This document shows, one piece after another, positions 8,346-9,725 of a DNA stretch of 9,725 nt. Origin of the DNA: a virus (lineage: Duplodnaviria > Heunggongvirae > Uroviricota > Caudoviricetes); the IMG/VR virus record IMGVR_UViG_2531839454_000019; one strand, written 5' to 3'. Under the pieces are notes generated by a model. It did not search any database. It saw only the letters and a program-made list of their open reading frames with translations, and was not told the origin of the DNA. The position numbers and the translations under genes are program-made. Numbering within the stretch: position 1 is the first letter of the stretch; the number at the start of each line of letters is the position of its first letter.

Positions 8346-8870
8346 ATGAAGTTATGGCCTGTGTTGACTGGCATTGCACTCTCTTTCACTCTTATAGCAT
8401 GTAAGGCCCCGACACCACCTAAAGGTGTGCAGCCGATTACAAATTTTGACGCCAACCGCTACCTCGGAAAATGGTATGAAATAGCTCGCCTCGAGAACCG
8501 GTTCGAACGTGGTCTGGAACAGGTCAGCGCTACTTATGGAAAACGGAACGACGGAGGGATTCGTGTACTTAACCGTGGATACGATCCAACGAAAAATAAA
8601 TGGAGCGAGAGCGAAGGTAAAGCATACTTTACTGGAGATACTAAAACTGCAGCATTGAAGGTTTCGTTTTTTGGCCCCTTCTATGGTGGCTATAATGTAA
8701 TCAAACTGGATGATGAGTATAAGTATGCTCTTGTCAGTGGTCCGAACAGAGAATACCTATGGATTCTGGCAAGGACCCCAACTATTCCAGATAAAGTAAA
8801 AGCAGACTATGTGCGAACCGCTCAAAAGTTGGGATTCAATGTCAATGAATTATTATGGGTTAAACAATAA
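8346..8870 (+). CDS. blc: Bacterial lipocalin Blc-like outer-membrane lipoprotein
   Basis: MKLWPVLTGIALSFTLIAC|KAPTPPKGV... with signal peptide and lipobox LIAC. Lipocalin motifs shared with recalled E. coli Blc (NFDANRYLGKWYEIARLENRFERGLE..., SEGKAYFTGD, AALKVSFFGPFYGGYNVI, EYLWILARTPTI). Only clearly coding + strand gene in the cargo region. Confidence 0.85.
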   Translation: MKLWPVLTGIALSFTLIACKAPTPPKGVQPITNFDANRYLGKWYEIARLENRFERGLEQVSATYGKRNDGGIRVLNRGYDPTKNKWSESEGKAYFTGDTKTAALKVSFFGPFYGGYNVIKLDDEYKYALVSGPNREYLWILARTPTIPDKVKADYVRTAQKLGFNVNELLWVKQ

Positions 8871-8898
8871 AATCCCTACCCGAAATAATACTTATTAG

Positions 8899-8925
8899 AA
8901 AAAAACCAGCCTTTGGGGAGGCTGG
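8899..8925 (-). terminator. Rho-independent terminator downstream of Q (tR'-like); also at the 3' end of the convergent lipocalin gene
   Basis: Minus strand: CCAGCCT-CCCCAA-AGGCTGG (7-bp stem; + strand 8906-8925) followed by T7 (A-run 8899-8905 on +). About 100 nt downstream of the Q stop, where lambdoid phages place tR'. Confidence 0.45.
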
Positions 8926-9025
8926 CTAAATCAGGAAACAAGCTGTTATATGATAATAACTACGTTGTGATTCCAACATTTAAAATGTTAGACTAATGAC
9001 AATCAGACAGCAACTTTTCCTTTAA
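8926..9025 (-). promoter_or_regulatory. Putative late promoter (pR'-like) / qut region between Q and the tR'-like terminator
   Basis: Positional inference from lambdoid architecture (Q, then pR'/qut, then tR'). Minus strand has promoter-like hexamers (e.g. TTGTCA ... and TTGGAA ... TATCAT), but none could be assigned confidently. Confidence 0.25.
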
Positions 9026-9403
9026 TTATTTCGAACAATCAGCATCCATCTCCAATCGGAGATCCAACACCATCAGCATACCCTCCACTACGCCCTCAGC
9101 TTTCTGAAGCATCCTGCCAACCCAACAATCAGATCGCCCATGCTTACGTGCAAGCGCCATAAAAGTCATGCCGCCGACATAATAGTCCACCAATAAATCA
9201 TGCAAATCGCTGTTGTTCTTTTTCAGACGGGCCATGCACCCGCAAATGATCATCGCGTCATCGTCACAACATTGTGGGCGAGATTTTACTTTTGAAGGAA
9301 TTAATCCCTTAAAACCGGCGGCAATGGACGACCAGGTCACATCTTCATGATTATTAGCCGCCCACGCTCCCCAACGCTCAAGAACCATCTGAATATCACG
9401 CAT
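9026..9403 (-). CDS. Q: Late-gene antiterminator Q (QuuD/phage-21-type)
   Basis: [88 protein letters not shown]... closely matches recalled K-12 QuuD. ATG 9403 with GGAG 7 nt upstream; the track's longer ORF starts at a TTG (9418). Confidence 0.85.
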
Positions 9404-9427
9404 CAACTTACTCCACAAAACTCAGAC

Positions 9428-9725
9428 TGTTGTGGTTTACTGAATTTGGCCACCTGAACAGAGGTGATATGCTCACCTCAGAACAACACAGGTGCCATAA
9501 TGAAAAAAAGAAATTTCAGCGCAGAGTTTAAACGCGAATCCGCTCAACTGGTCGTTGACCAGAATTACACCGTGGCAGATGCAGCCAGCGCTATGGATGT
9601 CGGCCTTTCCACAATGACGCGATGGGTGAAACAATTACGTGATGAGCGGCAGGGAAAAACACCAAAAGCCTCCCCCATTACCCCGGAACAAATTGAAATC
9701 CGTGAGCTCAGGAAAAAGCTACAAC
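9428..9725 (+). mobile_element. IS3-family insertion sequence (IS911-like), left end and start of orfA; continues beyond window
   Basis: Terminal segment TGTTGTGGTTTACTGAATTTGGCCACCTGAACAGAGGTG begins with TG and matches the recalled IS911 left inverted repeat over its inner ~27 nt (ACTGAATTTGGCCACCTGAACAGAGGTG). It is followed ~70 nt later by an orfA with an IS911 OrfA-like N-terminus. Exact boundary uncertain by about 15 bp. Confidence 0.75.
9500..9725 (+). CDS. insN: IS3-family transposase OrfA (IS911 InsN-like), 3'-truncated by window edge
   Basis: [79 protein letters not shown]-terminus and the start of a leucine-zipper region, near-identical to recalled IS911 OrfA. Confidence 0.85.

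Follow-up and report, generated by a model that had tools for sequence, protein, structure and literature searches.

The lipocalin Blc of Escherichia coli binds lysophospholipids, fatty acids and possibly tetrapyrroles (PMC8177097), and its gene (b4149 in K-12) belongs to the chromosomal frd-ampC-blc-gdx locus. That blc is also a common moron of lambda-like phages has already been published: Mathieu et al. (2020, PMC6969025) found blc, 'a bacterial lipocalin', in more than 50% of the lambda-type phages from infant-gut E. coli. Here we analyze the blc gene carried by 9,725 nucleotides (nt) of DNA from a tailed phage (IMG/VR record IMGVR_UViG_2531839454_000019; this whole stretch is called the window). 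A preliminary description of the window, made from its letters and open reading frames (ORFs), had proposed a Blc-like lipoprotein, second and divergent in its host, encoded against the late operon. As first stated the finding adds nothing new, the gene being annotated (RefSeq labels it 'lipocalin family protein' or 'blc') and reported as a frequent lambda moron. The preliminary description missed this literature as well as the separate Blc lineage to which the gene is assigned below. A further paper, on prophages of avian pathogenic E. coli (PMC7724020), proved not to be about phage blc.

We consider, with a probability of about 0.7, that the window carries a functional Blc-type lipocalin as cargo of a lambdoid (Qin-like) prophage, that it belongs to a lineage here called 'Blc2', and that it was captured together with the neighboring gene rudS and faces a hairpin acting in one direction. 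What is new here is the assignment to a lineage, the probable co-capture of blc and rudS, the purifying selection and a correction concerning the terminator.

A second blc between Q and the holin gene

An uninterrupted ORF of 174 amino acids (aa), starting with ATG, fills positions 8346-8870 of the plus strand exactly and is preceded by a Shine-Dalgarno sequence AGGA, 6 nt 5′ of the start codon. Its product matched Pfam Lipocalin_2 (PF08212) over profile positions 2-146 of 146 (E 7.2e-44, 149.7 bits, cut-off 24) and the NCBIfam model NF007786, 'outer membrane lipoprotein Blc', with 316.1 bits for a curated cut-off of 267. Crystal structures of E. coli Blc (3mbt, 1qwd and 2aco) were matched over 155-159 residues at E values of 3.5e-69 to 8e-68, covering residues 16/20-174 of phage Blc. 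Because this match to solved structures is gap-free at E ~1e-69, we regard the predicted fold, an eight-stranded lipocalin beta-barrel, as settled.

The N-terminus of phage Blc, MKLWPVLTGIALSFTLIAC followed by K, shows a basic n-region with Lys2, an uncharged h-region and a lipobox L-I-A-C ending at Cys19, a residue nearly invariant in an alignment of 11 homologues. Lipocalin conserved region 1 (YLGKWYEIAR, residues 39-48, GxWYEIAR motif) and the C-terminal conserved Arg region (YLWILAR, residues 137-143, LWIL(A/S)R motif) are both present. Both motifs and the lipobox Cys are conserved in the 11-sequence alignment, in which G41, W43, Y44 and R143 were invariant. Under the Lol rule of E. coli, lipoproteins without Asp at position +2 are sorted to the outer membrane; by its +2 Lys, phage Blc is predicted to be an outer-membrane lipoprotein. 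Its cup should bind small hydrophobic molecules, by analogy with E. coli Blc.

The late operon lies on the minus strand, opposite to blc, in the order Q, P21-type holin, DUF1327/YdfR, lysozyme, Rz with embedded Rz1, a cspI-like gene and the DUF1441 small terminase. Three cargo genes separate Q from the holin gene: blc on the plus strand, then rudS and an AraC-family gene on the minus strand (Table 1). In E. coli LT2-3 this block belongs to a complete prophage, which also carries the dicA/dicB/dicC immunity genes, hokD, ydfU and genes for portal, capsid and tail. The same arrangement (Q-blc-rudS-HTH-holin, HTH standing for helix-turn-helix) occurs in isolated, plaque-forming phages, for example IdasGreatGrand, Lambda_2E9 and 1H12; identity reached 99.8% for IdasGreatGrand and 94% for 11 lambda-like temperate phage records from infant-gut E. 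coli. Altogether, 12 of the 359 phage records having the Q region of the window carry blc, and in Lambda_4C10 and Chlobot, phages with a related Q, a porin gene fills the blc slot. The gene thus behaves as a moron in being present or absent at a fixed place among related phages. We conclude that blc is cargo of a Qin/lambda-like E. coli prophage, between Q and holin; the ORF, its lipocalin identity and its prophage setting are far beyond chance. Lipocalin matches in three Salmonella and two Acinetobacter 'phage' records (H75-H77, H80 and H81) were not counted, these records being 127-501 kb long and, judged by this size alone, probably not phages.

Of 5426 complete E. coli genomes, 5425 had a megablast match to K-12 blc and 1045 contained prophage blc (at least 95% identity over at least 80% of the gene length). 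Since the two proteins share 60% aa identity over their full length, phage blc is a second, divergent blc of the host. The whole rudS-blc-Q block was intact in 1010 genomes, so that about 97% of prophage blc copies lie in a fixed module. A contig of 2113 bp (JARKOR010000135.1) in a metagenome-assembled genome of 'Candidatus Nanosynbacter' (Saccharibacteria) also encodes a lipocalin with 99% identity to phage Blc; this contig is almost certainly a piece of E. coli prophage binned there by mistake.

Much of the preliminary description is borne out by these results. The Pfam, NCBIfam and PDB matches agree on a Blc-like lipocalin lipoprotein; the gene layout, the isolated phages and the complete prophage all place its gene between Q and the lysis genes, on the strand not used by the late operon; and with 60% identity to chromosomal Blc it is a second, divergent copy. 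Two questions that it had raised are answered by the counts: a chromosomal blc next to ampC is nearly universal in the host species (the 5425 genomes above), and prophage-borne lipocalins are widespread (the 1045 genomes and 12 phage records).

We then compared alleles among phages. Between the window and the Lambda_2E9 group, 25 of the 525 nt of blc differ, 20 changes being synonymous and 5 non-synonymous, with a ratio of non-synonymous to synonymous rates (dN/dS) of 0.065. The corresponding value for rudS, calculated with sequence L014 left out, was 0.11. At the level of allele comparison this shows purifying selection on the phage Blc protein, and the two values argue against a decaying passenger.

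Kinship with chromosomal loci carrying merR and rudS

The closest non-phage relatives of phage Blc, from Cedecea, Scandinavium, Klebsiella, Enterobacter, Pantoea and others, are 75-82% identical to it and thus far nearer than the Blc of E. coli itself. We surveyed such loci using one genome per species and searching for neighbors by tblastn. In 14 of 18 loci with a lipocalin at least 74% identical to phage Blc, RudS was encoded on the other strand within 2.5 kb, and 13 of these 14 also had a MerR gene about 120 bp upstream of the lipocalin. The remaining one, Huaxiibacter chinensis (L019), has RudS with no merR detected and is an independent merR-less version resembling the phage arrangement; a 136-aa ORF lies there between blc and rudS (9140-10000) instead of merR. 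Lipocalins 75-79% identical to K-12 Blc (57-61% to phage Blc) belonged to loci that were all linked to frdD/gdx, with or without ampC, and Buttiauxella izardii possesses one locus of each type. By these comparisons Enterobacterales have two Blc lineages, the phage gene falling in the MerR/RudS-linked one, and phage blc is not a duplicate of the ampC-linked blc of its host.

In Cedecea lapagei and Klebsiella, blc is divergent from, and about 120 bp away from, a gene for an MlrA-like MerR regulator. This regulator scored 210 bits on the NCBIfam MlrA model, and because this is under the cut-off of 417 we consider it a paralogue of MlrA and not MlrA itself. The operon headed by merR continues with SnoaL, SDR, FAD (flavin adenine dinucleotide) amine-oxidase-like, DUF1365, CMAS (cfa-like methyltransferase), DUF2878, chalcone-isomerase-like, DUF3833 and TudS-DUF1722 genes. 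A metagenomic contig encoding an 82%-identical lipocalin has a shorter locus, in which blc is followed across the divergent junction by merR, a transthyretin-like gene and TudS-DUF1722. In Rhodobacter, the gene of UfaO (DUF1365 family) adjoins that of the FAD protein UfaD, both being required for furan fatty-acid synthesis as part of the singlet-oxygen response (PMC7380195). The FAD amine-oxidase-like, DUF1365 and CMAS genes in the merR-rudS interval of Cedecea and Klebsiella (L005 1049-6926, L006 and L007) are the gene types of this Rhodobacter pathway. The operon thereby raises the possibility of enterobacterial furan fatty-acid synthesis under an MlrA-like regulator.

RudS is a desulfidase of 4-thiouridine (s4U) in tRNA, and the stand-alone DUF1722 protein YbgA is its only counterpart in E. 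coli. Phage RudS is 72-73% identical to RudS of the chromosomal blc-merR loci. RudS_vir, the phage 1H12 orthologue of the window rudS, has been cloned and tested by Jamontas et al. (PMC11417400), who also reported that many RudS genes belong to operons responsive to light and controlled by MerR/LitR, and that RudS is missing from E. coli itself; the lipocalin is not mentioned in that work.

The phage layout, blc on the plus strand, 192 bp and rudS on the minus strand, corresponds to the chromosomal locus minus merR and the intervening genes. Because the phage has both outer genes of the locus with merR gone from between them, blc and rudS were most probably captured as one block. This escaped the preliminary description: blc is not a lone insert and probably came with its neighbor rudS from a MerR-regulated chromosomal stress-response locus of other enterobacteria. 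Global pairwise alignment, used to place the junction of the merR deletion, gave only noise, and a likeness of 8164-8183 to the 5′ coding end of merR in the MAFFT alignment was for that reason not used. The GC content of phage blc is 43.8%, versus 57-58% in its chromosomal relatives, and synonymous sites are saturated between phage and chromosomal genes; from this saturation and the drop in GC, the capture appears to be old.

We also examined the upstream region, by MAFFT alignment with the Cedecea, Klebsiella and metagenome loci and by right-aligning 13 loci of the MerR/RudS type and 4 loci without these neighbors. In the 13 MerR/RudS-type loci the region upstream of blc is strongly conserved, with TCAATATACTACGAAT, GATGAAG, TGCACTACACTTA and AAGGAG-N6-ATG in this order. 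The phage has diverged counterparts with the same spacing: CTAATATAGTATGAAA at 8257-8272, including TATAGT at 8261-8266; CATACT at 8308-8313, 32 nt 5′ of the ATG; and AGGA-N6-ATG. Both TATAGT and CATACT are -10-like hexamers on the blc strand, and on the minus strand a TATATT facing rudS could be the relic of a merR promoter. These motifs are suggestive of diverged relics of the ancestral blc upstream region. Orientation and the kept upstream region would be consistent with transcription of blc in the lysogen from its own promoter, as the preliminary description had supposed. With its cognate regulator missing, blc might in E. coli be expressed constitutively, come under another regulator or stay silent.

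Several observations weigh against this picture of capture and expression. Neither MerR nor RudS is encoded nearby in four of the 18 close chromosomal loci (L022-L024 and L032, with 71-78% identity), and the search found no extant donor above 82% identity, so that a single capture is the most parsimonious course but unproven. A scan with the sigma-70 consensus found no plus-strand promoter upstream of blc. In blastn (word size 7), the 192-bp intergenic region gave no significant high-scoring segment pair against the 17 chromosomal loci, and hence the proposed upstream homology is one of motif and spacing. Finally, the phage is without the cognate MerR, so that in E. coli a relic promoter might not fire or might have escaped its control.

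A one-way hairpin and the proposed working of the locus

The preliminary description had a hairpin 3′ of blc doubling as the terminator of blc and as a tR′-like terminator of Q-side transcription. This holds for the Q side only. The hairpin, AACCAGCCTTTGGGGAGGCTGGCT at 8904-8927, lies 98 nt past the Q stop codon and 34 nt past the blc stop codon, and seven A's precede it on the plus strand, giving U7 in the minus-strand RNA. In the blc direction the sequence after it is CUAAAUCA, which contains no U-tract, and the hairpin does not fit the terminator pattern. In a terminator scan of 5600-9725, positions 8897-8927 were the sole terminator-like site, on the minus strand only. The minus-strand RNA folded at -18.4 kcal/mol (z -4.4) and the plus-strand RNA at -14.3 kcal/mol (z -1.8). 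A terminator of its own, which a moron might be expected to have, was thus not found for blc: the only downstream hairpin has its U-tract on the opposite strand. The 3′ flanks of chromosomal blc relatives contained no sequence like this hairpin, and we therefore assign it to the Q module of the phage. An Rfam scan of the whole window gave near blc only a sub-threshold match on the hairpin, with 28.6 bits for a gathering score of 50. From its sequence, the hairpin is best described as a one-way tR′-like terminator of the phage Q-side transcript.

The late promoter PR′ has a weak candidate overlapping the Q stop codon (Table 1), whose -10 hexamer aligns with TATAGT in the porin-carrying Lambda_4C10 and Chlobot. 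These two phages have a different hairpin and T-run at the equivalent place, where the convergent porin gene ends. The porin-carrying relatives (L009 and L010, 3395-3476) have a further GC-rich hairpin, GGGGCGTnGnAACGCCCC, with A/T runs on its flanks, between the Q stop codon and the region aligned with the candidate PR′; it is absent in the blc-carrying phages.

Because the hairpin terminates in one direction only, blc transcripts may run on towards Q, and Q-modified late transcription would have to cross about 0.5 kb of blc antisense on its way to rudS, the AraC-like gene and the holin gene. The layout would in this way force late phage transcription antisense through blc. Lying on the strand of the late operon, rudS could be driven by Q-dependent transcription after induction by ultraviolet light (UV) and the SOS response.

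A simple model of the locus would thus be the following. The Blc precursor would be exported, lipidated at Cys19 of LIAC and sorted to the outer membrane via the +2 Lys, where its cup would bind small hydrophobic molecules. About 110 nt of ancestral upstream region would drive blc in the lysogen, in the direction of Q. After induction, Q-modified polymerase would read through the hairpin and traverse blc antisense to rudS, the AraC-like gene and the lysis genes, and this antisense late transcription would shut blc off.

A broader interpretation, which we put forward tentatively and consider unlikely, is that blc and rudS are the regulator-less phage remnant of an enterobacterial light/photo-oxidative-stress regulon, with expression of the two genes tied to opposite phases of the life cycle of the phage. 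E. coli would then gain two functions missing from the species: a 'Blc2' lipocalin acting in the envelope on hydrophobic molecules that are damaged or photosensitising, and the removal of near-UV-sensitive s4U from tRNA. In this case blc would be active in the lysogen until convergent Q-dependent transcription silenced it, and this same late transcription would raise rudS expression once UV/SOS induction had occurred, protecting the translation of late proteins.

Among rival explanations, an unlikely one is that the blc transcription unit is chiefly regulatory. Convergent on PR′ and antisense to Q, it would damp leaky late genes, the Blc protein being incidental, and on induction late transcription would silence blc in turn; the PaQ antisense RNA of lambda is a precedent for damping late-gene expression. 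Read-through towards Q is indeed plausible with Q only 98 nt off and no U-tract on the blc strand, and the convergent layout is conserved, a porin gene occupying the same slot in the same orientation in related phages. An antisense role, however, needs no intact 174-aa ORF, whereas the family motifs and the lipobox are all kept and the aa sequence is under strong purifying selection (dN/dS 0.065). Regulatory and protein roles are not mutually exclusive.

Still less probable, indeed very unlikely, is that blc (with rudS) is a neutral hitch-hiker, a decaying bacterial fragment acquired by aberrant recombination and riding a successful Q/lysis module. The loss of merR, the frameshift of the third cargo gene in the window and the Q-holin slot being a known hotspot of variable cargo would all fit. 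Against this, the blc ORF is intact in the 1045 genomes and the 12 sequenced phages, the low dN/dS values of blc and rudS come from alleles 5-8% apart in DNA, and codon composition has been ameliorated to that of the phage, implying a long stay without decay. That the window gene is the ordinary chromosomal blc of the host in a non-prophage region is practically untenable and was rejected, nothing having been found in its favor: the ampC-blc-gdx gene differs from it and is present in all but one genome, the window gene has Q, holin, lysozyme, Rz/Rz1 and terminase genes around it and is found in isolated phages and a complete prophage, and it is neither the host's only blc nor without match to a lipocalin fold.

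The preferred reading, a functional cargo lipocalin, bears on strain differences. About 1 in 5 complete E. coli genomes carries the blc cargo block, and because of this frequency it would account for a substantial part of the differences between strains in envelope and stress physiology. The link to rudS points to near-UV, singlet-oxygen and lipid-peroxidation phenotypes rather than to the serum resistance considered in the preliminary description.

The other genes of the region are summarized in Table 1. Q of the window has 87-88% nt identity to E. coli quuD and 76-78% to Q genes of Shiga toxin (Stx) phages. For the AraC-family cargo gene (GC 31.5%), NCBIfam models ranked YdeO best, then HilD and GadX, all far under their cut-offs. 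In strain LT2-3 this gene is intact and encodes 237 aa, whereas in the window it has lost 1 bp near 6725 and is split into ORFs of 47 and 195 aa; it may relate to the YdeO-like prophage regulators of acid resistance and type III secretion in enterohaemorrhagic E. coli. Further along the minus strand, a cspI/cspG-like cold-shock gene (3793-4008) is prophage cargo 3′ of Rz, and the Rfam cspA thermoregulator matched at full length over its leader and coding sequence (3747-4163, 107 bits, gathering score 78). An Rz-like spanin (DUF2514) is encoded at 4369-4866 (minus strand), with an embedded ORF of 98 aa in another frame (4419-4715) whose lipobox-like LTSC and Pro-rich tail are features expected of Rz1. 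At the other end, the match to most close E. coli relatives stops at about 9420, where Q starts; the remaining 300 bp, upstream of Q (9420-9725), are a different mosaic segment. A tRNA search of the window found none.

Table 1. Coordinates of the features discussed, in positions of the window
Feature	Position	Strand	Basis and remarks
Holin gene, first lysis gene, downstream edge of the cargo slot	5709..5924	-	Pfam PF04971, E 1.4e-35
AraC-family (YdeO/GadX-like) regulator gene, third cargo gene, frameshifted here	6112..6851	-	Pfam HTH_18 and HTH_AraC
rudS (TudS desulfidase fused to DUF1722, 319 aa)	7194..8153	-	Pfam PF04463 and PF08349
Divergent blc/rudS intergenic region, 192 bp, in place of chromosomal merR	8154..8345	.	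MAFFT alignment, right-aligned upstream sequences
blc (174-aa Blc-family lipocalin lipoprotein, assigned to the MerR/RudS-linked 'Blc2' lineage)	8346..8870	+	ORF, profiles, PDB matches
Predicted lipoprotein signal peptide and lipobox L-I-A-C	8346..8402	+	Read from translation; Cys19 codon 8400-8402, +2 = Lys
tR′-like intrinsic terminator (predicted)	8897..8927	-	9-bp GC-rich hairpin 8927-8904, then U7
Late promoter PR′, weak candidate across the Q stop codon (TGGAGA-18-AATAAT)	9025..9054	-	Consensus scan, 9/12 matches
Antiterminator Q gene (QuuD/933W-related type)	9026..9418	-	Pfam PF06530, E 2.5e-51

Comparison with known systems

Chromosomal Blc of E. coli shares with phage Blc the family model, the length, the lipoprotein signal and the lipocalin motifs, and presumably the fold and general class of ligands. 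It differs by its locus, frd-ampC-blc-gdx versus the Q-holin slot, and by its lineage, which is visible in residues such as RLENRFERG in phage Blc against RFDHRFERG in the chromosomal protein and ALVSGPNR against ALVCGPDR. Regulation probably differs as well: in the literature cited in PMC8177097, RpoS dependence is established just for chromosomal blc.

Closest to phage Blc, with 74-82% identity, are the 'Blc2' lipocalins of Enterobacter, Leclercia, Klebsiella, Cedecea and Buttiauxella, which have no established name. Their loci resemble that of the phage in being divergent from the strand containing rudS, in the geometry from Shine-Dalgarno to ATG and in related upstream motifs. The phage copy, in contrast, is without merR, and without the SnoaL, SDR, UfaD-like, DUF1365 and CMAS genes where those occur; it lies in a late region and has a GC content of 44% versus about 58%.

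Other mobilised blc genes are known. The plasmid module blaCMY-2-blc-sugE, found at 364 plasmid places with about 67-74% DNA identity, is another mobilised blc in E. coli, a Citrobacter-derived fragment of the ampC-linked locus that insertion sequences have moved onto plasmids; unlike phage blc it belongs neither to the MerR/RudS-linked lineage nor to a phage. The 'outer membrane lipoprotein Blc' of Morganella phage IME1369_01 is an independent temperate-phage lipocalin, 54% identical to phage Blc. Its gene is located between the lysis genes and the small terminase, on the late-gene strand and with no rudS neighbor, unlike blc of the window.

Lambda Bor and Lom, which are expressed in lysogens, are similarly to phage Blc phage-borne envelope (lipo)proteins dispensable for the lytic cycle, though with no relationship in sequence or fold. 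The bor gene, like blc, faces against the late operon, and Lambda_2E9 has both genes. A serum-resistance phenotype is documented for Bor; we know of no such phenotype documented for phage Blc.

Finally, the Lc/NmpC/OmpD-type porin morons (PA-2 and DLP12, here Lambda_4C10 and Chlobot) occupy the same slot after a related Q and a hairpin, in convergent orientation and with an outer-membrane product. The porin itself is an unrelated beta-barrel, and the intergenic sequence and hairpin are also different. Stx phages carry stx in this slot behind Q/tR′. The slot has repeatedly hosted outer-membrane cargo in convergent orientation, and outer-membrane cargo placed in this way directly behind Q, as with the lc/nmpC porins, is a known pattern.

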